From Delftia acidovorans NBRC 14950 (GTDB lineage: Bacteria; Pseudomonadota; Gammaproteobacteria; Burkholderiales; Burkholderiaceae_C): a stretch of 32,000 bases of DNA. The stretch spans positions 1 through 32,000 of the forward strand of contig NZ_BCZP01000008.1 of the NCBI RefSeq assembly GCF_001598795.1, read 5' to 3'. How positions within the stretch are numbered: the first letter of the stretch is position 1; each line of letters starts with the position of its first letter. Both the position numbers and the translations under genes were made by a program. This document shows positions 5,114 to 22,222 of the stretch, in pieces. The notes below the pieces were generated by a model, which did not search any database, was not told the origin of the DNA, and worked only from the letters and a program-made list of their open reading frames with translations.

Positions 5114-5749
5114 TTACGTGGAGGGCTGGCCCGCGCCCGGCGGCAGCTGCCAGTTCGCCGTGGCAGGGTGATGGGCCAGCAGCCCGCGCAGCCGGTGCCA
5201 GTCGAAGCCAGCGCCCGGATCGCATTTGCGGCCCGGCGCGATGTGCTCATGACCTGCGAGATGGGCCACGGGGTAGCGGGCCGCGATGGCGTTGCACAGG
5301 GCATCGAGCGCCGCGTACTGGGCCGGCTCGAACCGCAGGCCCTCCAGGCCTTCGAGTTCTATGCCGATGGAGTCGTCGTTGCAGCGGTCACGGCCCCGCC
5401 AGCAGGAAGCGCCTGCATGCCAGGCGCGCGCATCGCAGTCCACAAACTGCCAGACCTCGCCCTGGCGCGTGATGAAGAAATGCGCCGACACCTCCAGGCC
5501 GCGTATCCCCTGGTAGTAAGGATGGGCGTCCCAGTCGAGCTGGTTGGTGAACAGTTGCTGGACTGCACCCGTGCCGTACTCGCCGGGGGGCAGGCTGATG
5601 GAGTGCACGACGACCAGATCGACCAGTGCCTGGGCCGGGCGCTCGCCAAAGTTGGGCGAGGGCAGGTGGCGGGCCTGCTGCAGCCAGCCGCCTTGCCAGG
5701 TCCAGGCCGGGGCCTGGGTGGCTTGCGCCTGTGGATCAGGACTCGCCAT
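5114..5749 (-). CDS. ampD: 1,6-anhydro-N-acetylmuramyl-L-alanine amidase AmpD
   Basis: Close to E. coli AmpD (SPNFGERP, VVHSISLPPGEYG, RAWHAG, CNDDSIGIELEG, GHEHIAPGRKCDPG). Start is ATG 5749 with GGAGG 6 nt upstream. It overlaps the upstream gene's end by 14 nt. Confidence 0.9.
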   Translation of the reverse strand: MASPDPQAQATQAPAWTWQGGWLQQARHLPSPNFGERPAQALVDLVVVHSISLPPGEYGTGAVQQLFTNQLDWDAHPYYQGIRGLEVSAHFFITRQGEVWQFVDCDARAWHAGASCWRGRDRCNDDSIGIELEGLEGLRFEPAQYAALDALCNAIAARYPVAHLAGHEHIAPGRKCDPGAGFDWHRLRGLLAHHPATANWQLPPGAGQPST

Positions 5750-7283
5750 GGCCGCCTCCGTCCGTATCCGCGCTGGCATCGCCGGGCAGGGCGATGTTCA
5801 GCCGGTCGATGCGGTAGCGGATCTGGCGCAGGCTCAGGCCCAGGCGCGCGGCGGTGGCCGTGCGGTTGAAGCCGTTTTCCTGCAGCGCCTGCACCAGGAT
5901 GCTGCGCTCGCGCTCGTCCAGCCAGGCCTGCAGGTCGCGGGGCAGGTCGGCATCGGCTGGCTCTGGCGATAGCGGGCTGCCTTGCGGCAGGGGGCGCGAA
6001 GGCGAGAGCGGAGGAGAGGGCGAGGCGGATGCAGGCGGTGCGGGCGGGGCTGGTGGCGTGCCGCAGGGCAGCTGCATCTCGGGATCTATGCGCAGCGGTC
6101 CGTCCTCGCCCAGCGTGATGGCGCGGTGCAGCAGGTTCTCCAGTTCACGCACATTGCCGGGCAGGGGCAGGCGGGCGATCTGCTGCACTGAACGCTCGTC
6201 GATCTCGGGCATGGGCAGGCCGGATTCCTGCGACAGCCGTGCCAGCAGGGCGCGGCACAGGGCAGGCAGGTCTTCGCGGCGTTCGCGCAGCGGGGGCAGC
6301 AGTACCTCAATGACATTGAGGCGGTAGTACAGGTCCTGCCGGAAGCGCCCCTGCTGCACATCGGCAGCCAGGTCGCGGTGGGTGGCGCTGACGATGCGTA
6401 CATCGGCCGCTTCCTCCTGTGCGGAGCCCAGGGGGCGCACGCGGCGCTCCTGGATGGCGCGCAGCAGCTTGGCCTGCATGGCCAGGGGCAGGTCGCCGAT
6501 CTCGTCCAGAAACAAGGTGCCGCCGCGCGCAGCCTGGAAGTAGCCGTCGCGGTCCTGGGTGGCGCCGGTATAGGAGCCCTTGCGCGCGCCGAAGAACTCG
6601 GCCTCCAGCAGGTTTTCGGGAATGGCGCCGCAGTTCACGGCCACCATGGGGCCATGGGCACGCTGGCTGCAGGCATGCAGCGCGCGGGCCACCAGCTCCT
6701 TGCCAGTGCCCGACTCGCCATGCACCAGCACCGGCGCCATGCCGCGGGCCACCTTGGCAATGCGCTGCTTGACGGCCTGCATGGCGGGTGACTCGCCGAC
6801 CATGGCGTCCAGTGCGCCGCTGCCGTTGAGCACCGGGCTGGCGGCGGGAGAGGCCGAAGGGCTGCGCGCCGGCATCACGCCCGGGGCCGGCACACCGCCC
6901 ACGCCCTGGGCGGCCGAGGCCACGACCAGGCGGAACTGCTTGAGGTCCACGGGCTTGGTCAGGTAGTCGAAGGCGCCTGAGCGCAGGGCCTCGACGGCGT
7001 TCTCGGCGGAGCCGTAGGCCGTCATGACCACGCAGCGCTCGCGCCGCTGCTGGCTGCGCAGGTCCTGCAGCAGCTCCATGCCCATGCCGTCGGGCAGGCG
7101 CATGTCGGTGATGACCACGTCGAAGCGCTGGGTCTGCAGCTGCTCGCGCGCCTCGCCCACGCTGGCGGCGGTTTCCACGCGGTAGCCTTCACGCAGAAGG
7201 GTCAGTTCATAGAGGGTGCGCAGATCCGGCTCGTCGTCCACGACAAGGATCGATGCGGTAGCGGGCAGGGAGTTCAAAGGCAT
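5736..7283 (-). CDS. Sigma-54-dependent response regulator (REC + AAA+ + Fis-type HTH), PilR/NtrC-like
   Basis: REC domain (VVDDEPDLR, DMRLPDGMGMELL, TKPVDL). AAA+ domain (GESGTGKE, the GAFTGA-equivalent region SYTGA, ESELFG-like EAEFFG). C-terminal HTH (NRTATAARLGLSLRQIRYRI). The ATG at 7283 shares one base with the kinase TGA; a GTG at 7286 is also possible. Confidence 0.85.
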   Translation of the reverse strand: MPLNSLPATASILVVDDEPDLRTLYELTLLREGYRVETAASVGEAREQLQTQRFDVVITDMRLPDGMGMELLQDLRSQQRRERCVVMTAYGSAENAVEALRSGAFDYLTKPVDLKQFRLVVASAAQGVGGVPAPGVMPARSPSASPAASPVLNGSGALDAMVGESPAMQAVKQRIAKVARGMAPVLVHGESGTGKELVARALHACSQRAHGPMVAVNCGAIPENLLEAEFFGARKGSYTGATQDRDGYFQAARGGTLFLDEIGDLPLAMQAKLLRAIQERRVRPLGSAQEEAADVRIVSATHRDLAADVQQGRFRQDLYYRLNVIEVLLPPLRERREDLPALCRALLARLSQESGLPMPEIDERSVQQIARLPLPGNVRELENLLHRAITLGEDGPLRIDPEMQLPCGTPPAPPAPPASASPSPPLSPSRPLPQGSPLSPEPADADLPRDLQAWLDERERSILVQALQENGFNRTATAARLGLSLRQIRYRIDRLNIALPGDASADTDGGGHGES

Positions 7284-9046
7284 CACACCACAATCTGATC
7301 AAACAGGGAGGCCGGCAGGGCCGAGGCCGGGCCGGCACGGAACACGATGCTGAAGGCATTGCCCTCGACAGGGCCGTGCGGCGTGGGCCGCGACAGCCGC
7401 TGGTAGCTGATGCTGGCATCGTAGCGCTGGCACAGCTCGCGGCAGATATACAGGCCCAGGCCGCTGGAGCGGCTTTCCGAAGAGAAGAAGGGCTCGAACA
7501 GATGGCGTTGCACCGTGGGCTCCAGCGCGGCGCCGTCGCTCCAGACCTGTAGCCAGATCTGGCCGCCGGCCGGCGCGCCGGTCAGCACCTGCAGCGTGTG
7601 TGGCTCGTGGGCGTTGCTGCGGTAGCGCCGGGCGTTGTCCAGCAGGTTCACCAGGATGCGGCGCAGATGCTCGCCATCGAACACCACGGTCTTGTCCCTG
7701 GCGTCCAGCAGGAGCTGGATGCTGTGCGCGGGCTGGCCCTGGGCCTGCCATTCCTGGCAAACCTGGGCCACATGCTGGTCCAGGGCCAGCAGGCCGGCAT
7801 GCGCCTCGCCAATGTGCTGCTGGGCCCGGGCGATGTTGAGTACGTCCTCGACGATGCGTGCCAGGCGCTCGGCATTCTGGCCCACGATGCGGCACAGCTG
7901 CTGCTGGGCCGGGTCCTGCGCCAGATCCTCGGCCAGCAGGGCATTGGCCTGGGTGATGGCGGCCAGCGGATTGCGGATCTCGTGGGCCACGGCGGCCGAC
8001 ATGCGGCCCATGGAGGCCAGCTTTTCCGTGCGCAGCCGCGCCTCCATCTCGCGCAGATCATGCAAAAAGACCACGCACAGCTGCTGCAGCAGTGCGGGCT
8101 CGGCCGCGTCGGCGGCCTCGGATGGGGTGGCGACCTCGGTCAGCCAGGTGCGCAGGTGCAGGCCCGTCATGCCTTCCTGGCCGATGGACTGCAGATGGAT
8201 GGCGGCCGAGATGGGCAGGTTCTGGGCAAAGCTCTGGGCCACGGCGTCCTGCAGCCGCTGCCAGCCGGAATGCTCCTTGAGGGCGAAGGGCAGGGCATGC
8301 GCGTCGGCCAGCCCCAGCAGGTGCAGCGCGGCCGGGTTGGCCTGCTGCACGCGGAACTGGGGATCGACCACCAGCACGCCTTCGCCCAGGTGGCGGATCA
8401 CCAGGGCATTGACCTGTTCCTGCGTCTGGGCCTTGCGGCTGCTGTGCTGGGCCAGGTGGCGCTCGCGCCGCACGCGGCGTGCCAGTTCGTGCGTCAGATA
8501 GGCCACCGCGAAATAGCCTGCGCAGGCAAAGCTGGCCTGGTAGTAGGCCTGGGTGCTTTCTATGCGGCCTGCCACGTCCTGCCATGCCACCCAGCCCAGG
8601 GTCAGCAGCGTGACGCTGGCCGTGGTGGCCAGGGCCAGCGTCAGATTGCCCAGCACGGCCGAGATCAGGATGGGAATGGCCAGCAGGGCCGAGTAGTTCA
8701 GCGGCCCGGTCTGCAGCATCTGCAGCAGGCAGATGACTGCGATGTCCACGCCGATCACGGGCAGCCAGTGCACGCCGGCGCGGGGCGAGGGCGGCTGCGC
8801 GCGTGCCGTCAGCCGCAGCAGCAGCGTCAGCCCCAGGTAGCCCAGGCAGACCAGCCAGACCAGGGAATTGCCGCCGGGCTGCACGCTGAGCAGCGCCAGC
8901 TGCAGCAGCAAAAGCGCAGTGGCGATGAGCACGCGGCCGGTCAGGAAGCCCTGCCATAGCCGGACAAAGGGGGCGTTGGCGTCGTGCGGCGACTGCGCCG
9001 CGGCCTCGTCGATGGTGGGTGGCTGGGGGGGGGCCGCGTCCTGCAT
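7283..9046 (-). CDS. Sensor histidine kinase with about six N-terminal TM helices, PAS, HisKA and HATPase domains (PilS-like architecture)
   Basis: H-box MSAAVAHEIRNPLAAI, N-box LVNLLDNA, G-box SGLGLYICREL. Six hydrophobic segments follow MQDAAPP. I place the start at ATG 9046; the 128-codon upstream extension in the track is R/C/P-rich junk overlapping the neighbouring gene. Confidence 0.85.
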   Translation of the reverse strand: MQDAAPPQPPTIDEAAAQSPHDANAPFVRLWQGFLTGRVLIATALLLLQLALLSVQPGGNSLVWLVCLGYLGLTLLLRLTARAQPPSPRAGVHWLPVIGVDIAVICLLQMLQTGPLNYSALLAIPILISAVLGNLTLALATTASVTLLTLGWVAWQDVAGRIESTQAYYQASFACAGYFAVAYLTHELARRVRRERHLAQHSSRKAQTQEQVNALVIRHLGEGVLVVDPQFRVQQANPAALHLLGLADAHALPFALKEHSGWQRLQDAVAQSFAQNLPISAAIHLQSIGQEGMTGLHLRTWLTEVATPSEAADAAEPALLQQLCVVFLHDLREMEARLRTEKLASMGRMSAAVAHEIRNPLAAITQANALLAEDLAQDPAQQQLCRIVGQNAERLARIVEDVLNIARAQQHIGEAHAGLLALDQHVAQVCQEWQAQGQPAHSIQLLLDARDKTVVFDGEHLRRILVNLLDNARRYRSNAHEPHTLQVLTGAPAGGQIWLQVWSDGAALEPTVQRHLFEPFFSSESRSSGLGLYICRELCQRYDASISYQRLSRPTPHGPVEGNAFSIVFRAGPASALPASLFDQIVV

Positions 9047-9048
9047 GC

Positions 9049-9309
9049 TCAGCGCCGTTGCGCCAGGGTGCGGTGCTCTGCGCTGCAGTAGCTGCGGCCG
9101 GCCGCCTCGATGGCCTCGCTGCGCGGCAGGTGCAGGCCGCAGTGCGCGCACTCGACCATGTCCTGTGGAGCCGCCAGCGGCGCATTGGCCGGGTTGGCCG
9201 GGTTGCGCGGCGCAGCGGCCTGGCGCCGCTCGCGGGCCTCGGCACGGCGCTGGCTGCGCCAGACGCCGACGGCAATGATGATGACGATCAGGACCAGCAG
9301 GTACTTCAT
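9049..9309 (-). CDS. Small (86 aa) membrane-anchored protein with a C-terminal CxxC...CxxxH zinc-ribbon-like motif
   Basis: MKYLLVLIVIIIAVGVWRSQRR is a TM anchor, followed by a Pro/Asn-rich linker and MVECAHCGLHLP...SYCSAEH. The ATG at 9309 overlaps the ypjD-like stop (ATGA). Its stop is 2 nt from the kinase ATG. As far as I recall it resembles the small 'PP0621 family' proteins; this is unverified. Confidence 0.65.
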   Translation of the reverse strand: MKYLLVLIVIIIAVGVWRSQRRAEARERRQAAAPRNPANPANAPLAAPQDMVECAHCGLHLPRSEAIEAAGRSYCSAEHRTLAQRR

Positions 9310-10121
9310 GTGGTGCGCTCCAGCAGCACTTCCATGACGAAGCGCGATCCCGCATAGGCCAGCAGCAGCAGCAGGGCGCCTGCATAGAGCATGCGCACGG
9401 CGCTGCGGCCACGCCAGCCAAAGCGCGCACGGCCGATCAGCAGCACGGCAAAGGTCAGCCACGACAGCAGCGAGAACACAGACTTGTGGTTCCAGACCCA
9501 GGCCTTGCCATAGAGCTGCTCGCCGAACAGCCAGCCTGCGGCCAGCGTGGCCGTGAGCAGCACAAAGCCTGCGGACACGAAGCGGAAGGTCAGGCGCTCC
9601 AGTGTGAGAAGCGGCAGGCCGCTGTCATGGCCACCGCCGCCCAGCCGCATGTGCTGCTCGGCGCGTGTCATCAGCGAGGCGTGGACCACGGCGGCCGCGA
9701 ACAGTCCGTAGGAGGCAATGCCCAGTGCCAGGTGCAGCGGCAGCCAGGGCGAGGCGTTGACATGCAGGGGCGTTCCCGGAAACAGCGCGGCCATGAGCAC
9801 GGCGGCCGTGCCCAGCGCTGACAGCGCCAGCTGCGCGCGCATCTTGGGGAACAGCTGCTGCTCGACGCCATAGACGGTGAGCACCAGCCAGGCCGTCATG
9901 GACAGGGCCGGTGCAAAGCCGAAATGAGGCTGCTCCCCGAGCAGTCCCCAGGCCAGGGCCAGGGCGTGGAGCACCCAGGCCAGGCGCAGGGCAATGCGGG
10001 CGCCGGCCTGGCTGATGCGTCGGGCGCCGGCGGCTGGCACGGCATAGGCCACGGCTGCGGCAAGCGCCAGCATCCAGCCCAGGGGCGATACGTTGGCGGA
10101 AATCAGGGGGACGGAGAGCAT
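9306..10121 (-). CDS. ypjD: Cytochrome c assembly (CcsA-like) family inner-membrane protein, YpjD-like
   Basis: Polytopic membrane protein of 271 aa with the W-rich C-terminal half typical of YpjD/CcsA-like proteins (WVWNHKSVFSLLSWL). It has the classical position near ffh. Confidence 0.7.
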   Translation of the reverse strand: MLSVPLISANVSPLGWMLALAAAVAYAVPAAGARRISQAGARIALRLAWVLHALALAWGLLGEQPHFGFAPALSMTAWLVLTVYGVEQQLFPKMRAQLALSALGTAAVLMAALFPGTPLHVNASPWLPLHLALGIASYGLFAAAVVHASLMTRAEQHMRLGGGGHDSGLPLLTLERLTFRFVSAGFVLLTATLAAGWLFGEQLYGKAWVWNHKSVFSLLSWLTFAVLLIGRARFGWRGRSAVRMLYAGALLLLLAYAGSRFVMEVLLERTT

Positions 10122-10204
10122 CTTTCAATGATAGCTGTGGCTTTCCCGCCGCCGGTTGTGCAGGCTCAGAATCCGGGTGCCATGCCGTGGTTCGGCGCGC
10201 ATTT

Positions 10205-11123
10205 TCAGGGCTCCACGGCTGCCTCGATGCGATTGCGCCCCTGGGCCTTGGCCTGGTAGAGCAGGCCGTCCGCCTTCTGCAGCCAGGTTTCCAAAGGCGC
10301 GGCAGACGGCTGCCGCACGGTGAGTACGCCGCAACTGACGGTGAGCTGCGGCGCCGTGGGAGAGGCGGCGTGGGCGATGGACAGGCGCAGCACTTCCTGG
10401 CGGAAATGCTCGGCCATGGCCGGCGCATCGCTTTCGCCGGGGAGGATGAGCGCGAATTCCTCGCCGCCAAAGCGCGCTGCCAGGTCGTAGGGCCGGCGCG
10501 CATGGCGCTGCAGCGTGGCAGCCACGGCCTTGAGCGCCTCGTCCCCCTGCAGATGGCCATAGCAGTCGTTGTATTGCTTGAAGTGGTCTATATCAATGAG
10601 AGCCAGGCCCACGGGCTCGCCCGTGCGCAGGCTGCGGCGGTAGGCGCGCTCCAGCACGTCGTCGAAGTGGCGCCGGTTGGCCAGGCCGGTCAGCCCGTCC
10701 ACCATGGCCAGGCGCTCCAGGGCCTGGCGCTGCAGGGCCAGCCGTATCTGGTTGCGCACGCGCACCTCGACCACGGCGGGGCGTATGGGCTTGGAGACAT
10801 AGTCGGCCGCGCCCAGGCGCAGGCCGTATTCCTCGGCCTCGGCATTGCTCTGTCCGGTGATGAAGATGACGGCGATATGGGCGGTGCGCTCCTGCGCGCG
10901 CAGCGCACCCAGCACCTCGTAGCCGTTCATGCCGGGCATGGCCAGGTCCAGAAGGATCAGCTGCAGGCGGTGGGCTTCGCGGTGGGCGATCACCAGGGCG
11001 CCAGGGCCATCCTTGGCCAGCAGCACTCGGTAGTGGGGGCTCAGCAGCTCGGCCAGCATGCTGCGGTTCAGCCGCTCGTCGTCCACGATGAGGACCGTGG
11101 GCAGCTCCGACCCGGTCAGGGCG

Positions 11124-11131
<8 letters not shown>
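10205..11131 (-). CDS. Response regulator-diguanylate cyclase (REC + GGDEF)
   Basis: REC domain (VLIVDDERLNR, LLDLAMPGMNG, SKP). GGDEF domain with GGEEF and an RxxD I-site (RPYD) five residues upstream. The ATG at 11131 overlaps the upstream kinase stop by 8 nt (ATGCTTGA). Confidence 0.9.
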
Positions 11132-15020
<3,889 letters not shown>

Positions 15021-15136
15021 GAAGACTCCCAGGCGGTAGCAAGCCAGCATTGCGGAATGTGATAGCCATAAACTATGGAAACATTGCGCATGTTACTGCT
15101 GGCCGGTGCCTGCCGTGGGGCACGGAAGGCCGGTAC

Positions 15137-17413: not shown

Positions 17414-17818
17414 ATGCGTAACAAGCTCGAATTCGCACTGCGCCTGCGCCAGGCCATCGAGGCTGCGGGACTGGAGCCCCGGCCCAGCGTGCTTCTGAAG
17501 CTGTTCAATTCCAGTTACTGGGGGCGGCCGATCTCGTTCCAGGCGGTCTCGCGCTGGCTGAACGGCGAGGCCGTTCCCGAGCAGGACAAGCTGGTGCTGC
17601 TGGCGGGTTTGCTCGAGGTCGAGCCCGATGTGTTGCGCTATGGCGAGTCGGCCCACCGGTCCCCGCCGTCCCTGCCGTCGCCGCTCGAATGCCAGGAGCC
17701 GGGCGTGGGCTATCTCGAACGCGAAACCTTCGATGCCTTTCTGAAGCTGCCCGCGCCTCAGCGCCAGGTGGTGCGGGAGGTGATCCTCACCTTCGCCAAG
17801 GTGCATGGCGAAGGCTGA
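17414..17818 (+). CDS. XRE/Cro-C1-type helix-turn-helix transcriptional regulator
   Basis: The N-terminal segment FALRLRQAIEAAGL...ISFQAVSRWLNGEAVPEQDKLVLLAGLLEV is HTH_3-like. GC3 is high throughout. Confidence 0.7.
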   Translation: MRNKLEFALRLRQAIEAAGLEPRPSVLLKLFNSSYWGRPISFQAVSRWLNGEAVPEQDKLVLLAGLLEVEPDVLRYGESAHRSPPSLPSPLECQEPGVGYLERETFDAFLKLPAPQRQVVREVILTFAKVHGEG

Positions 17819-17866: not shown

Positions 17867-18541
17867 TCACCGGACGGCCTGCTGCTGCCAGGGCATGGCA
17901 TGCCAGGGGTGGCGCGGATCGGCCACCCACTGCTGCACTTGCTCGGGCGTCACGCTGCGCCCCAGCACGTCGGCGCGGCCACGGGCCAGCCACTGGCTGC
18001 GGCCGCGTGCGTAGGCCTGGCCGAAGGCCTGCCAGCTGTCAAAGCAATCCCGCGCGCGGCATGCGTTCAGGTGCAGGATCTGCTGGTGCAGGGCCTCGTC
18101 CACCCAGCCCAGCAGCCAGGCGCAGCGCACATGGAAGGCCACGCGCGCGCAGGCAAAGGCCATGGCGGCATGGGGATCGTCACCGGCCTGCAGGCGCTGC
18201 AGGTCCAGCGTGAACCAGCGCTGGCGCAGGCCATCGGGCAACTGGCGTGCGATCTGGGCATCGTCCAGGTCGGTGCGCAGGCCCAGGTGGTGCAGCACCA
18301 TGGGGCGCAGCTGGGTGGTCAGGGCGGAGTCGGCGCCGTTGAGCTGCCGGTCCGCAAAGCCGCCCTGGATGGCGTGAAAGGCCATGGGATGGGCCAGGGC
18401 CAGGGCCCAGTCCAGTGCCGCGTCACCGCTGCGGTAGCTGCTGAAGTCGCCGCGTTGGCGCGACGCACGCATGCGCCGCAGGCCGGCGCGCACTGCCCAC
18501 CAGAGCAGTGCAGACAGCACAACAAGGGTGAAGGCGTTCAT
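17867..18541 (-). CDS. Membrane-anchored DUF1266-like protein (224 aa)
   Basis: N-terminal TM helix AFTLVVLSALLWWAV. The C-terminal part, AMAFACARVAFHVRCAWLLGWVDEALH...FDSWQAFGQAYARGRSQW, resembles the DUF1266 signature (E. coli YbeR/YbeU) from memory. The ATG at 18541 overlaps the upstream stop (ATGA). Confidence 0.6.
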   Translation of the reverse strand: MNAFTLVVLSALLWWAVRAGLRRMRASRQRGDFSSYRSGDAALDWALALAHPMAFHAIQGGFADRQLNGADSALTTQLRPMVLHHLGLRTDLDDAQIARQLPDGLRQRWFTLDLQRLQAGDDPHAAMAFACARVAFHVRCAWLLGWVDEALHQQILHLNACRARDCFDSWQAFGQAYARGRSQWLARGRADVLGRSVTPEQVQQWVADPRHPWHAMPWQQQAVR

Positions 18542-19776
18542 CGCGGATTTCCTGTCCTGCCCGGTGTTCCCGGCGATCCCGGCGATCCCGCCCGGCGCCG
18601 CGCCAGCTCCAGCGACTGCTGCAGGGCCGCGCTGCGCGGCATGCGCTCGAAGGCGGGCACGGGCACGGTGTCGCGGCGTGCCGCGACCAGCCATTGCATC
18701 AGGGGCGACCGGATGTCCAACTGCACCAGCAGCGCCGGGTGGGACTGCAGCAGCCACAGCTGCTCGGCCTCGGTGTGCAGCTCGCTGGCCGCGCACCAGG
18801 CAGCCGCGCTGCCCGTGGCCAGCAGCTGTGCCGGTCGGCGCACGATGCCCATGGCCAGGGCGTCCGCTGGCGCCTCGCCATCGGTATCGAGGTGATTGAG
18901 CAGGGCCAGCACATCGGCCAGGTAGCGCGCAATCGGCGGGCGGTTCTGCTTGCCCTTGATCTGGTCGATGCGCAGCCGCCCGTCGTCCCGCACCTGGGCG
19001 CTGACGGTGATGCGCGGCTGGGCCGTGCCCGTGCGGTAGCTGAACAGCCGCAGCCGGCCCTGCTCACAGGCTTCGGCGTAGTGCTCGCCATAGCCGCCGC
19101 GCAGTGCGCCGCGCTCGCTGAACTGGCCCAGGCAGTGGCGCATCATCTGGCTTTCATAGGCCATTTCGGCGCGCAGGTCCCGGCTTTGGGCATCGAATTC
19201 GACGAAGACACCCAGCTGGCCACGCAGCAGCGGGCGGACGGCGCCGGGCCGGTGCTCGGCCCAGCCGCTGTCGCTTCTCCGGGCGAAGGCCAGGTGCTCC
19301 AGCGTCCAGCGCGCCAGCGCCTGCGGGCAGTTGATGCGCTGCAGCTTGCCCTCCAGCGCGGTGCCGCGCCGGGTGGACAGGAACTCCAGCAGCCGGCTCT
19401 CCAGCGCCAGCAGGGGTGCGCTGTCGGGCTCCACCCACCACAGCGGCGCGCTGCCGTCGGCCGCAGGCCTGTCCGGTGACAGCGGCTGGCGGGCCGCATG
19501 TTCGCGCAGGCGCTCCAGCGCCCAGGCGGCAGGCTCGGCGCGCCGGTGCAGGCGCAGCAGCTCGGCCTGCGTGGACACGGGCTGCACGGCAGGCGGATCG
19601 GCTTCGAGGTTGCCGATCACATGGCGGTAGAAGTGGTTGGCCAGCCAGGCGGCGATCTCCTCGCTGTCGCCGCGTGCGGCGCTGCGCTCGCGGATGCGCT
19701 GCTTGATGGCCGGCGCATTGACCACGTCGCGCGGCCGATAGGCACTGGCGGCGTTGGCACCGGCGCCCGGGTTCAC
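18538..19776 (-). CDS. PcfJ-like domain protein (412 aa), GTG start
   Basis: MRHCLGQF...GRLRLFSYR...PRITVSAQV...LRIDQIKGKQNRPP resembles the PcfJ-like (PF14284) core from memory. The only in-frame starts clear of the upstream gene are GTGs. GTG 19776 overlaps the upstream TGA (GTGA). The first in-frame ATG inside the gene is more than 200 codons downstream. Confidence 0.6.
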   Translation of the reverse strand: MNPGAGANAASAYRPRDVVNAPAIKQRIRERSAARGDSEEIAAWLANHFYRHVIGNLEADPPAVQPVSTQAELLRLHRRAEPAAWALERLREHAARQPLSPDRPAADGSAPLWWVEPDSAPLLALESRLLEFLSTRRGTALEGKLQRINCPQALARWTLEHLAFARRSDSGWAEHRPGAVRPLLRGQLGVFVEFDAQSRDLRAEMAYESQMMRHCLGQFSERGALRGGYGEHYAEACEQGRLRLFSYRTGTAQPRITVSAQVRDDGRLRIDQIKGKQNRPPIARYLADVLALLNHLDTDGEAPADALAMGIVRRPAQLLATGSAAAWCAASELHTEAEQLWLLQSHPALLVQLDIRSPLMQWLVAARRDTVPVPAFERMPRSAALQQSLELARRRAGSPGSPGTPGRTGNPR

Positions 19777-22061
19777 CACAGCTTCCACCAGGGCTTGCTG
19801 TCCGAGCGCAGCTTGAGGCAGCGCTTGAGGCCGTCCTTTGCCATCCTGTGCTCGGCCTCGCCGTCGTCGGGCGTGAGCTTGGCGATGGCCTCGCGGTGCA
19901 GGGCCACGGCCTGGTCGATGGGGCCGCAGCTTTCCATGGCGCAGGCCAGGCGGCGCAGGGTGTAGCACTCGCCCAGGGCGCGCACTTCGGGCAGCAGGGC
20001 GTCCAGGCGCGGGCGCACCAGTTCGCCATGGTTTTCGGAGAAGAAGTCGAGCAGGGACATCAGTGAGGCCAGGTAGTCGCGCCGCTGTTCGCGCTGGTCG
20101 TCCTCGTCCAGTTCCTCGAACCACTGGTCCAGGCGCTCCAGCCAGATGCCGATTTCGCCTGCGCGGCCCAGCTGGTAGAGCGCCAGCGCCGCGCTGGGGA
20201 AGTAGTCCGTGGGGCAGTGGCGGCTGTAGCCGTAGTCCTGGGTGAAGTGCCACAGCTGCTCGGCCGCCGTGACGATGCCGGGGCGGTCGTCACGGCGGAT
20301 GGCGCACCACAGCAGGCCGTCATGGTGTTCGGCAAAGGGGCTGCTGGACAGGCCCTTGTGGTGCAGGGCCGCCGCCTCGTCATAGCGCTGCTGCGAGCGG
20401 TATTTGATGGCCAGGTTGTTGCAGAGCATGGAGTAGACGTGCAGGTGCGCGTCCTTGTACCGGCCCTGGCCGGTGGCCCAGAAGGCTTCGAAGCGGGCCA
20501 GGCCCTCTTCGTAGTAACGCTGCACCAGCGGCTCGCGCACCTCGTCGCCCGGCACCTGCCGGCCTTCGCCCATGAGGGAGGCCAGGTCGTCCTCGTCGTC
20601 CAGGGTCACGCCCGCTGCATAGCACCAGTGGGCGCCATGGCCCTGCGCAAAGGGGCGCTGCAGCGCCTGCGCGGCGGGCAGCACGGCGAAGCGCGCGGCC
20701 CAGAGCATGGGCAGCAGCTCGGAGTTGGCGTGCCGGGGCTGGTCGGTCACGCCGCGCTCCAGCAGAGGCAGGGCCTGCTCCCATTGGCGGTCCTTGGCCA
20801 GGCGCCAGCCGTCGATCAGGTCCAGCAGAGGGTGGCCGGGCGCCTGGGTGCGCGCCAGGGCCAGGTAGTCGTCGGCGCTGCGCGGAGCAGCCGGGCTGTC
20901 TTCCAGGATCTCCTGCATGTCGGAATCCAGTCCCGCCCAGGCCAGGATCAGCGCCCAGGCCGGTGCATGGGCGGTGTCGCTGTCCACTCTGCGCAAGGCC
21001 AGTTCATAGCCCTGACGGGCCGATCCGGGGCGGCTGTGCAGCACGCTTTCCAGCGCCAGGTCCGCCGCATCGGCCAGGCGGCCCGCCTCTTCCAGCCACT
21101 GCAGCACCAGGCCGCTGAAGGCATCGTCGGAGTCATCCACCAGGCCGAAGCGGCCCAGCGCAGCCAGCTGCAGCGCGGCCTCGGGCTGGCCCATGGCATG
21201 GCAGGCCATGGCCTGCAGCCGGGCCGCATGGACCTTGCGGTGCGTGCGTACCGCCTGCGATGCGGCGGGGCTTTCGGTGCGGGCCAGGTGCTGCTCCGCC
21301 GCCATGAGCACGGCCGGAACGCTTTGCGGGGCCAGCGGCAGGACCTCGCGCGCAAGGTGCAGCCAGTCGTCGAAGTCCACGTTCTGCTCTGCATCGGCCT
21401 GGGTCAGCAGCGCCGTGGCGGCCTGCACCTGGCGCACGGTGGCGGGCACATCGCCGCGCAGACGGGCCAGCTCGGCCTTGCGCAGGCAGGCACGCGCATC
21501 GCGGCGCGCGGGGGAGGCCTCGCCATCCGGGTCGCTGCGTTCGTGGCTGCGCTGCAGGTCCACGCCTTGCTCGGCCAGCTCCCAGGCCTGGGCTTCGCGG
21601 GCCAGGTAGTGCCAGCCGTTCCAGTAGCGGTAGGGCTCGCTGGTGTGCGGCAGCCGGCCCATGAGATCGGCAGCGGGCGCGAGCAGGGCCACGCCGCCTT
21701 CACGGTCAAAGCGCAGCCGGCTCTGGATGTCGCTGAGCGCCAGGCTGGCCGTGGCCAGCAGGTGGTTGTCGCCCTGCAAGGGTTGCAGCGTGGCAGCGCG
21801 GTGTTCGCGCAGCAGTGCGTTGGCGGTTTCGGGCCGTTCCAGGTCCAGCCAGAGATCGTGCAGACGCTCCAGCTCGCCCACCGTGGCCGGGGCGAAACGC
21901 TGCTGCGAGAGCAGCTCCATGACGGCCGCCTGGCGTTCGGCCGGGGCGATGGGGCTGGCATCAGCCTCCTGCTGCAGCAGGTCGTGCGCTTGGTCCATGA
22001 AGGCATGCAGGGCTTCGCCCTCAAGGACGGCCTGGGCGGTGGCGGGCTGGGAGGTGTTCAT
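19773..22061 (-). CDS. Large (762 aa) all-helical, TPR-like repeat protein of unknown function
   Basis: Balanced amino-acid composition and very high GC3, versus the G/V/Q/H-rich mirror ORF on the + strand. TPR-like stretches are present (YSMLCNNLAIKYRSQQRYDEAAALHHKGL). I see no Walker A or other catalytic motif. I place the start at ATG 22061; the 32-codon upstream extension has visibly lower GC3. Confidence 0.7.
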   Translation of the reverse strand: MNTSQPATAQAVLEGEALHAFMDQAHDLLQQEADASPIAPAERQAAVMELLSQQRFAPATVGELERLHDLWLDLERPETANALLREHRAATLQPLQGDNHLLATASLALSDIQSRLRFDREGGVALLAPAADLMGRLPHTSEPYRYWNGWHYLAREAQAWELAEQGVDLQRSHERSDPDGEASPARRDARACLRKAELARLRGDVPATVRQVQAATALLTQADAEQNVDFDDWLHLAREVLPLAPQSVPAVLMAAEQHLARTESPAASQAVRTHRKVHAARLQAMACHAMGQPEAALQLAALGRFGLVDDSDDAFSGLVLQWLEEAGRLADAADLALESVLHSRPGSARQGYELALRRVDSDTAHAPAWALILAWAGLDSDMQEILEDSPAAPRSADDYLALARTQAPGHPLLDLIDGWRLAKDRQWEQALPLLERGVTDQPRHANSELLPMLWAARFAVLPAAQALQRPFAQGHGAHWCYAAGVTLDDEDDLASLMGEGRQVPGDEVREPLVQRYYEEGLARFEAFWATGQGRYKDAHLHVYSMLCNNLAIKYRSQQRYDEAAALHHKGLSSSPFAEHHDGLLWCAIRRDDRPGIVTAAEQLWHFTQDYGYSRHCPTDYFPSAALALYQLGRAGEIGIWLERLDQWFEELDEDDQREQRRDYLASLMSLLDFFSENHGELVRPRLDALLPEVRALGECYTLRRLACAMESCGPIDQAVALHREAIAKLTPDDGEAEHRMAKDGLKRCLKLRSDSKPWWKLW

Positions 22062-22196
22062 GGAATCGATAGCAAGCAAGCGAAGCTGGAAAAGCCATGC
22101 AGGCCGACGGACCTCAGGGCGGCGACCCCGCGATGCTAGCGGGCCGGCCGGCACCATGCCAGAGTGGTCGGGCTGTTTTCACGTCCTGTTACACGC

Positions 22197-22222
22197 AAAA
22201 AAGCCCGGCATTGCCGGGCTTT
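22197..22222 (-). terminator. Rho-independent terminator after miaB
   Basis: In the minus orientation: GCCCGGC-aat-GCCGGGC followed by TTTTTT. Confidence 0.7.

Follow-up and report, generated by a model that had tools for sequence, protein, structure and literature searches.

A conserved, translationally coupled cassette of TPR, PcfJ-like and DUF1266 genes in Delftia acidovorans and its tentative reading as a membrane-tethered, transferase-like complex

The chromosome of Delftia acidovorans NBRC 14950 carries, between miaB on one side and nlpC and ffh on the other, a cassette of three minus-strand genes that we call G1, G2 and G3. The stretch analysed here, referred to as the window, comprises 32,000 nucleotides (nt) of contig NZ_BCZP01000008.1 (positions 1 to 32,000, forward strand), and its genes G1, G2 and G3 encode, respectively, a predicted tetratricopeptide repeat (TPR) protein, a divergent relative of PcfJ and a DUF1266 protein with a membrane anchor. 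The G2-G3 pair recurs in every genome locus recovered by our scan, and the three proteins are well supported as partners in one complex, for which a transferase-like function is put forward tentatively below. The features of the cassette are as follows.

19773..22061, minus strand: G1, a predicted 762-amino-acid (aa) cytoplasmic TPR/alpha-solenoid protein (open reading frame, TPR_7 match and family profile)
18538..19776, minus strand: G2, a putative 412-aa divergent PcfJ-superfamily protein; start GTG at 19776, with possible alternatives at 19779 and 19788
17867..18541, minus strand: G3, a 224-aa DUF1266 protein with a predicted N-terminal transmembrane anchor
19773..19776, minus strand: GTGA start/stop overlap of G1 and G2, read from the sequence
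18538..18541, minus strand: ATGA start/stop overlap of G2 and G3, read from the sequence
22197..22220, minus strand: intrinsic terminator of miaB, a hairpin and T-tract that shields the cassette from upstream transcription
22062..22196, minus strand: upstream region of 135 nt with conserved blocks, presumed to hold the cassette's own promoter

The initial annotation, made from the letters of the window and a list of open reading frames, had described three minus-strand genes of 762, 412 and 224 aa joined by GTGA and ATGA overlaps, and both statements hold. The open reading frames as listed run over 19773-22157, 18538-20253 and 17867-18796, and the internal starts that give the three stated lengths coincide with the N-termini of the homologues. 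G1 ends with CTG TGG TGA, its stop codon lying at 19775-19773, and the GTG of G2 overlaps this end at 19776-19774; the overlap persists with either of the alternative GTG starts of G2. At the second junction the TGA of G2 (18540-18538) and the ATG of G3 (18541-18539) form the ATGA. Purifying selection acts on all three genes, the ratio of non-synonymous to synonymous substitution rates (dN/dS) against D. tsuruhatensis being 0.17 for G1, 0.22 for G2 and 0.10 for G3. The homologues of the cassette proteins number in the hundreds, the closest matches to the proteins of the window are 92-99% identical and come from Delftia, and the G+C content of the cassette genes (0.70-0.72) lies within the range of the remaining window.

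Upstream, the cassette is separated from miaB as had been proposed. The hairpin AGCCCGGC-AAT-GCCGGGCT, a GC-rich stem of 8 bp followed by a run of six T, lies after the miaB stop at 22220-22197 and folds with -23.4 kcal/mol (z = -4.3), although a scan for consensus terminators did not call it; the spacer of 135 nt then extends from 22196 to 22062, up to the ATG of G1. Alignment of the upstream regions of Delftia and Comamonas revealed two conserved blocks in this spacer, TGTAACA-N4-GTGA (22193-22179), directly after the terminator, and GCTAGCAT (22140-22133), with the form GCTAG(C/G)AT, about 72 nt before the ATG of G1. The cassette's own promoter presumably lies within 22062-22196. No sigma-70 consensus promoter was found in this upstream region, and a TGGCA element considered as a promoter was set aside since its position is not conserved between Delftia and Comamonas, so that no promoter type is claimed.

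In a scan limited to one genome per species, 79 genome loci were recovered, and in all of them a DUF1266 gene stands immediately after G2. The coupling itself is widespread: a 4-nt overlap joins G2 to G3 in 60 of 81 loci, and their junction lies within -10 to +4 nt in a further 20, one locus having no start candidate. G1 and G2 share a 4-nt overlap in 33 of 60 loci, and their junction lies within -16 to +7 nt in 26, again with one locus lacking a start candidate. Two architectures can be distinguished. In type A, a G1-like gene precedes G2, as in the loci L001-L061 except L003; this arrangement occurs in Delftia, Comamonas, Acidovorax, Paracidovorax, Aquabacterium, Rhodoferax, Chitinimonas, Azovibrio, Tahibacter and Pseudomonas paralcaligenes. 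In type B, found in the Burkholderia cepacia complex, Variovorax, Rhizobacter, Citrobacter and Buttiauxella, G1 is absent and a DUF4034 protein of about 700 aa is encoded downstream of DUF1266, the enteric representatives having an extra small TPR gene upstream. Type B modules resemble the Delftia trio in their coupled G2-G3 pair, which shares 38-43% identity, and in having a helical partner of about 700 aa, but this partner lies downstream, belongs to DUF4034 and has no detectable relation to G1. The idea that G1 is simply the DUF4034 partner in permuted order was rejected on an hhalign probability of 1.3%.

The proposal of a translationally coupled three-gene cassette is borne out by the gene-neighbourhood check across the loci, which finds the genes syntenic far beyond NBRC 14950. 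In Delftia, Comamonas, Acidovorax and Paracidovorax the trio occupies one and the same chromosomal site between miaB and nlpC/ffh, and among the 79 loci miaB is found nearby in 33, nlpC in 31 and ffh in 28. The site differs in other lineages, the module of Buttiauxella, for instance, lying between baeSR and yegQ. A fourth conserved gene was also considered and rejected, as all-against-all clustering of the neighbours in 82 loci returned only shadow reading frames and lineage-specific housekeeping genes. So was a phage-borne form of the module: ten full-length 'viral' hits proved to come from the host, lying past yegQ and adjacent to where a P2-like prophage ends, and the other 45 viral matches covered the PcfJ core only. 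In these ten enteric IMG/VR contigs (L087-L096) the type B PcfJ-like/DUF1266/DUF4034 module appears only beyond the host yegQ, next to P2-like GpU and GpD genes, and the prophage boundary in them is drawn too wide.

The association of G2 with G3 extends to natural gene fusions. Single-chain PcfJ-like–DUF1266 proteins of 570-700 aa (P0161, P0162, P0167, P0171 and P0173) were recovered, several of them with hydrophobic segments in the linker, and P0193 joins PcfJ-like, DUF1266 and TPR parts in one chain of 774 aa. The fused forms can retain the third partner as well, since the one at L084 adjoins an upstream G1-like gene (hhalign 100%, E = 2e-48) and the one at L086 overlaps a downstream DUF4034 gene.

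G1, which had been called a helical-repeat protein, can now be described more closely as a predicted TPR-type solenoid. It matches TPR_7 of Pfam with 30.8 bits at aa 547-571 (cut-off 27.9), and its family profile finds TPR proteins in the PDB with four regions, at aa ~285-340, 385-450, 548-600 and 699-740, so that at least one model above its threshold is accompanied by repeated TPR-like stretches. The PDB matches (consensus TPR, SPINDLY, SRP72 and MamA) are generic TPR proteins only, and neither a signal peptide nor a membrane segment was found in G1. G1 has 37 close homologues, and its family is marked by an invariant C-terminal tail, PWWK(L/F)W, in which W758, W759 and W762 never vary. This aromatic tail may serve as a docking peptide or anchor the protein at the membrane interface. 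The codons of the tail (aa 757-762, 19773-19790) overlap the start region of G2.

The DUF1266 assignment of G3 and its N-terminal transmembrane helix, both proposed in the initial annotation, were recovered by searching. G3 scores 44.9 bits against PF06889 (threshold 27) at aa 118-218, which correspond to model positions 83-175 of 175, so that it covers only the C-terminal half of the model; its homologues are annotated as DUF1266. The N-terminus consists of a hydrophobic helix followed by basic residues, and 73 of 80 G3 orthologues have a hydrophobic segment at this end. Because of the basic residues after the helix, the positive-inside rule predicts that the DUF1266 domain should be cytoplasmic. 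Sequence searches of G3 against the PDB gave chance-level matches only.

The PcfJ-like call for G2 stood in part. Against the Pfam family itself (PF14284), G2 reaches only 13.4 bits (E = 0.07) and thereby fails the gathering threshold of 25 bits; a weak match of this kind is seen in 17 of 23 members of the G2 family (best E = 9.7e-4), while an enteric G2 orthologue reaches 25.8 bits and P0193 25.7 bits. A search of the G2 family profile against 1.84 billion representative proteins, by contrast, returned 522 relatives, the distant ones being bona fide PcfJ proteins that score 37.6-115.9 bits on PcfJ. Across 116 distant domains, 24 positions of the PcfJ core are conserved in at least 80%, and G2 keeps 22 of them: E208, M212, H214, C215, G217, G228, Y229, Y233, G240, S246, R248, P254, T257, Q272, K274, G275, K276, N278, P281, Y285, D305 and G310. 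The signature common to G2 and the superfamily can be written E...HC...GYG...S-x-R...T...Q-x-K-G-K-x-N...P...Y. In addition, the AlphaFold model of a 41%-identical G2 homologue matches models of phage proteins labelled 'PcfJ-like protein' with E-values from 1.5e-10 to 4e-7. Because the profile search, the conserved residues and these fold matches agree, G2 is assigned, from sequence and predicted structure, to the PcfJ superfamily as a divergent member outside the Pfam family as now delimited. The statement that none of the three proteins bears a catalytic motif was too strong, in view of the invariant polar constellation of G2 and the GNAT-like core predicted for it below.

G2 departs from the superfamily at two positions in Delftia and Comamonas, where D249 is replaced by T and H255 by R; the distant PcfJ domains have D at 249 in 64 of 75 and H at 255 in 71 of 75. 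The codons concerned lie at about 19030-19014. H255 is kept in the Acidovorax-type proteins, and both residues are kept in the fused forms that were read (P0162, P0167 and P0171).

Among the distant relatives of G2 are giant proteins of 1,400-3,300 aa (P0218, P0239, P0241 and P0255) with up to three or four PcfJ-type stretches, which also carry Topo IB, ART-PolyVal, InPase or SLT domains. Polyvalent proteins, which phages and conjugative elements encode, typically combine domains in this way (PMC5512222). The paper describing them does not name PcfJ, and the two GNAT families that it reports are not to be equated with PcfJ on present evidence (PMC5512222). With a bona fide PcfJ protein as query, a tblastn search of the phage collection returned few genes, annotated as 'PcfJ-like' or hypothetical. 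G2 differs from the PcfJ proteins of mobile elements in that it is chromosomal, vertically inherited, always paired with DUF1266 and equipped with conserved N- and C-terminal helical domains of its own.

Structure prediction offers a possible clue to the function of the PcfJ core. The AlphaFold model of G2, built with the family alignment, has a mean local-distance confidence (pLDDT) of 87 and a predicted template-modelling score (pTM) of 0.66, and consists of an N-terminal helical domain, an alpha/beta core at aa ~175-330 and a C-terminal helical domain. The predicted order of elements in the core, b1-a1-a2-b2-b3-b4-a3-b5-a4-b6, is that of GNAT proteins, and the most conserved loop of the superfamily, Q272-x-K-G-K-x-N278-x-x-P, falls in the model between the fourth strand and the third helix (b4-a3). 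In GNATs the b4-a3 loop holds motif A (Q/R-x-x-G-x-G/A), which binds the pyrophosphate of coenzyme A (CoA). At the same position G2 has Q272-I-K-G275-K-Q277, in which the Q and the G are invariant and the last residue is Q, G, E or S across the family.

The core of G2 and that of the fusion P0167, which was modelled independently (pLDDT 89.4, pTM 0.82), agree in their structural neighbours. For both, nearly all of the best 50 Foldseek matches in the PDB are transferases of the GNAT superfamily, those of G2 including ESCO1/ESCO2/Eco2, AAC(6'), SpeG, RimL, NatD, FemX and LF-transferase. The best match of G2 is ESCO1 (E = 8.9e-3, prob 0.97); P0167 likewise has ESCO1 as its best match (prob 0.99) and reaches a target-normalised TM-score of 0.5 with RibT. 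GNATs also appear among the fold matches in the viral library. None of the PDB matches of either PcfJ-core model has E <= 1e-3, and G2 has no sequence-level match to any GNAT family in Pfam or in the profile search against PDB sequences, which returned nothing at all for the G2 profile. The likeness to GNATs, above all to Eco1/ESCO1, therefore consists of the element order, the Q-x-x-G loop at the place of motif A and the consistency of the Foldseek matches; set against it are the missing sequence match, the weak fold E-values, the incomplete motif A and a conserved cluster of E, H and C in the a1-a2 region that classical GNATs do not have. A GNAT-like fold for G2 appears likely on these models, while acyl-transfer chemistry is possible but less certain, its chances lying somewhat below even.

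The fusion model also bears on the relation between G2 and G3. Its pTM of 0.82 is high in comparison with 0.66 for G2 alone, an indication that the PcfJ-like part and the DUF1266 part are packed together as a single body; the DUF1266 part has no counterpart in the PDB. Constant adjacency of G2 and G3, 4-nt overlaps, natural fusions, retention of the third partner by the fusions and this one-body fold are the grounds on which it is well supported that the three proteins would form one complex. The earlier suggestion of a stoichiometric, membrane-associated complex thus gains strong backing from the natural fusions and from the conserved N-terminal anchor.

The reading that we favour, with confidence a little below an even chance, is that of a cytoplasmic, membrane-tethered, TPR-scaffolded complex of transferase-like character. 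The cassette would be a self-contained operon whose three products assemble on the cytoplasmic face of the inner membrane. G3, anchored by its single N-terminal helix, would bind G2 directly, and G2 would be the working subunit, a GNAT-derived protein of transferase type and a chromosomal relative of the PcfJ-like domains of phages, plasmids and polyvalent proteins. Its predicted pocket would be lined by E208, H214-C215, S246, R248, T257, the loop Q272-x-K-G-K-x-N278 and Y285. G1, in turn, may recruit or present the target, much as the TPR scaffold Naa15 holds the GNAT Naa10 in NatA; the two systems would share a small catalytic-type subunit and a TPR protein of about 760 aa, and would differ in that the Delftia trio is tethered to the membrane through DUF1266. 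The likeliest chemistry under this scheme would be the movement of an acyl-type group from a donor of CoA type or containing a nucleotide onto a macromolecule, such as a protein, close to the membrane.

Several observations weigh against this scheme. The G2 proteins of Delftia and Comamonas have T249 and R255 instead of the superfamily D and H, and because of these replacements catalysis could be altered or lost in this clade. The final position of motif A in G2 is not G or A. No homology could be detected between G1 and the DUF4034 partner, so that the scaffold role of G1 is assigned by analogy only, and the interface between the subunits is inferred rather than directly observed. Furthermore, no neighbouring gene, regulator or publication was found that would hint at the donor, the substrate or a phenotype.

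One alternative dispenses with catalysis altogether and regards the trio as a non-enzymatic adaptor or regulatory scaffold, in which DUF1266 and helical-repeat proteins serve as adaptors in chaperone action or signalling and the PcfJ-like part is a binding module. Such a role is suspected for the arrangement in E. coli K-12, where DUF1266 genes are coupled to genes of J-domain co-chaperones, near Sel1-repeat genes and hscC, and this context (ybeQ-ybeR-djlB and ybeT-ybeU-djlC-hscC) was found to be as the initial annotation had it: at L083 (676711-681663) ybeR/djlB and ybeU/djlC are each joined by a 4-nt start/stop overlap. Like the Delftia cassette, the ybe cluster couples a DUF1266 gene to a larger partner and includes a helical-repeat (Sel1/TPR) gene, but the order is reversed, with DUF1266 first, and DUF1266 is coupled to a J-domain co-chaperone, with an Hsp70 encoded close by, instead of to a PcfJ-like protein; moreover, YbeR and YbeU match the full DUF1266 model with 154-158 bits, compared with the half model and 44.9 bits of G3. 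The loss of D249 and H255 in Delftia and Comamonas and the all-helical nature of every partner except G2 would also suit an adaptor. The specific link to chaperones nevertheless gains no support, as the Pfam search placed neither DnaJ nor HSP70 in G1, G2 or G3, genes for J-domain or Hsp70 proteins are missing from the annotated neighbours of the six related loci L001-L003, L082, L084 and L086, and no gene outside the module recurs beside it. Nor does DjlC show similarity to G2, a resemblance of its non-J part having been rejected on an hhalign probability of 0.6%. Against a non-catalytic binding module also speaks that 22 of the 24 core residues are kept in G2, mostly polar residues and glycines and including an invariant loop of 10 residues, a pattern typical of a ligand-binding active site. 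An adaptor is regarded as an unlikely explanation.

Somewhat less probable still is a domesticated module for defence, or counter-defence, against phages or plasmids, with an effector domain borrowed from mobile elements. PcfJ-like domains are indeed typical of phages, conjugative elements and polyvalent proteins with ART-PolyVal, InPase, SLT and Topo IB domains, the spread of the module outside Comamonadaceae is patchy (Burkholderia, Pseudomonas, Tahibacter, Citrobacter and Buttiauxella), and the enteric module is an insert between baeR and yegQ. The cassette, however, holds a fixed position among housekeeping genes in several genera and has the G+C content of the remaining window, none of its proteins matches PADLOC (E <= 1) or PHROGs, genes for integrases, nucleases or ATPases do not recur beside it, its neighbourhood is not that of a defence island, and the full-length relatives in 'viral' contigs lie outside the P2-like prophage, beyond the host yegQ. 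Finally, GNAT toxins exist, AtaT is among the weak Foldseek matches in the PDB, and the tight coupling of G2 and G3 could recall a toxin-antitoxin or toxin-immunity pair in which G2 is a GNAT-like toxin and G3 its neutraliser. Such a pair seems very improbable, because it would mean that many genomes naturally fuse the toxin to its neutraliser, and because the proteins are of large size, never lack a third large partner and are encoded at a vertically inherited locus rather than on mobile DNA.

The transferase-like complex remains the preferred reading among these, and, as in the initial annotation, the cassette could not be assigned to any described system. Scans of the three proteins against NCBIfam, PADLOC and PHROGs gave no matches, the homologues are labelled in databases as 'hypothetical', 'DUF1266 domain-containing' or 'tetratricopeptide repeat protein', and no functional study was found in the literature searched for DUF1266, PcfJ-like (PF14284), DUF4034, ybeU/ybeR/hscC or ynjI. 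In relation to the DUF1266 modules of E. coli, what is new is the exchange of the J-protein for a PcfJ-type protein; in relation to the PcfJ proteins of mobile elements, it is that the trio is chromosomal and stable and would be part of a three-part complex. PcfJ-like, DUF1266 (including YbeR, YbeU and YnjI) and DUF4034, three widespread families to which no function has been attached, are now tied together by gene order, coupling and fusions, and the presence of the module on the chromosomes of culturable Delftia, Comamonas, Acidovorax, Burkholderia and Citrobacter provides a simple experimental entry point. Should the GNAT-like reading be correct, it would supply a chemistry for an effector domain that many mobile elements inject or carry, as well as a new bacterial modifying complex that is membrane-tethered and TPR-scaffolded; should it be wrong, the cassette remains a well-defined conserved operon.

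A broader view, which we consider improbable, is that PcfJ-like domains in general are unrecognised GNAT-derived enzymes that modify macromolecules, and that DUF1266 is a general membrane-proximal adaptor coupling effectors to helical-repeat scaffolds, the effector being a PcfJ-type transferase here and DjlB or DjlC in E. coli. If this were true, the trio of Delftia would stand as the housekeeping prototype for a membrane-tethered bacterial counterpart of the NatA-type TPR-GNAT pairing, and the E. coli genes ybeR, ybeU and ynjI, like the PcfJ effectors that phages and plasmids carry, would gain a first functional handle.

Two observations concern the surroundings of the cassette in the window. 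The wider neighbourhood, at 11124-15050 (minus strand) and 5736-11323, contains many signalling genes, among them an open reading frame of 1308 aa whose product resembles a hybrid sensor kinase, a PilS-like kinase together with a sigma-54 response regulator, and a response regulator of GGDEF type; no link was seen between these neighbouring genes and the cassette. Convergent on G3 lies a gene for an XRE-type regulator with an HTH_3 domain (134 aa, 17414-17818, plus strand), which occupies this position only in the Delftia loci L004 and L005, a copy in L015 lying elsewhere in its locus. Because the other Comamonas and Acidovorax loci lack it, this gene between nlpC and the cassette is a lineage-specific insertion.

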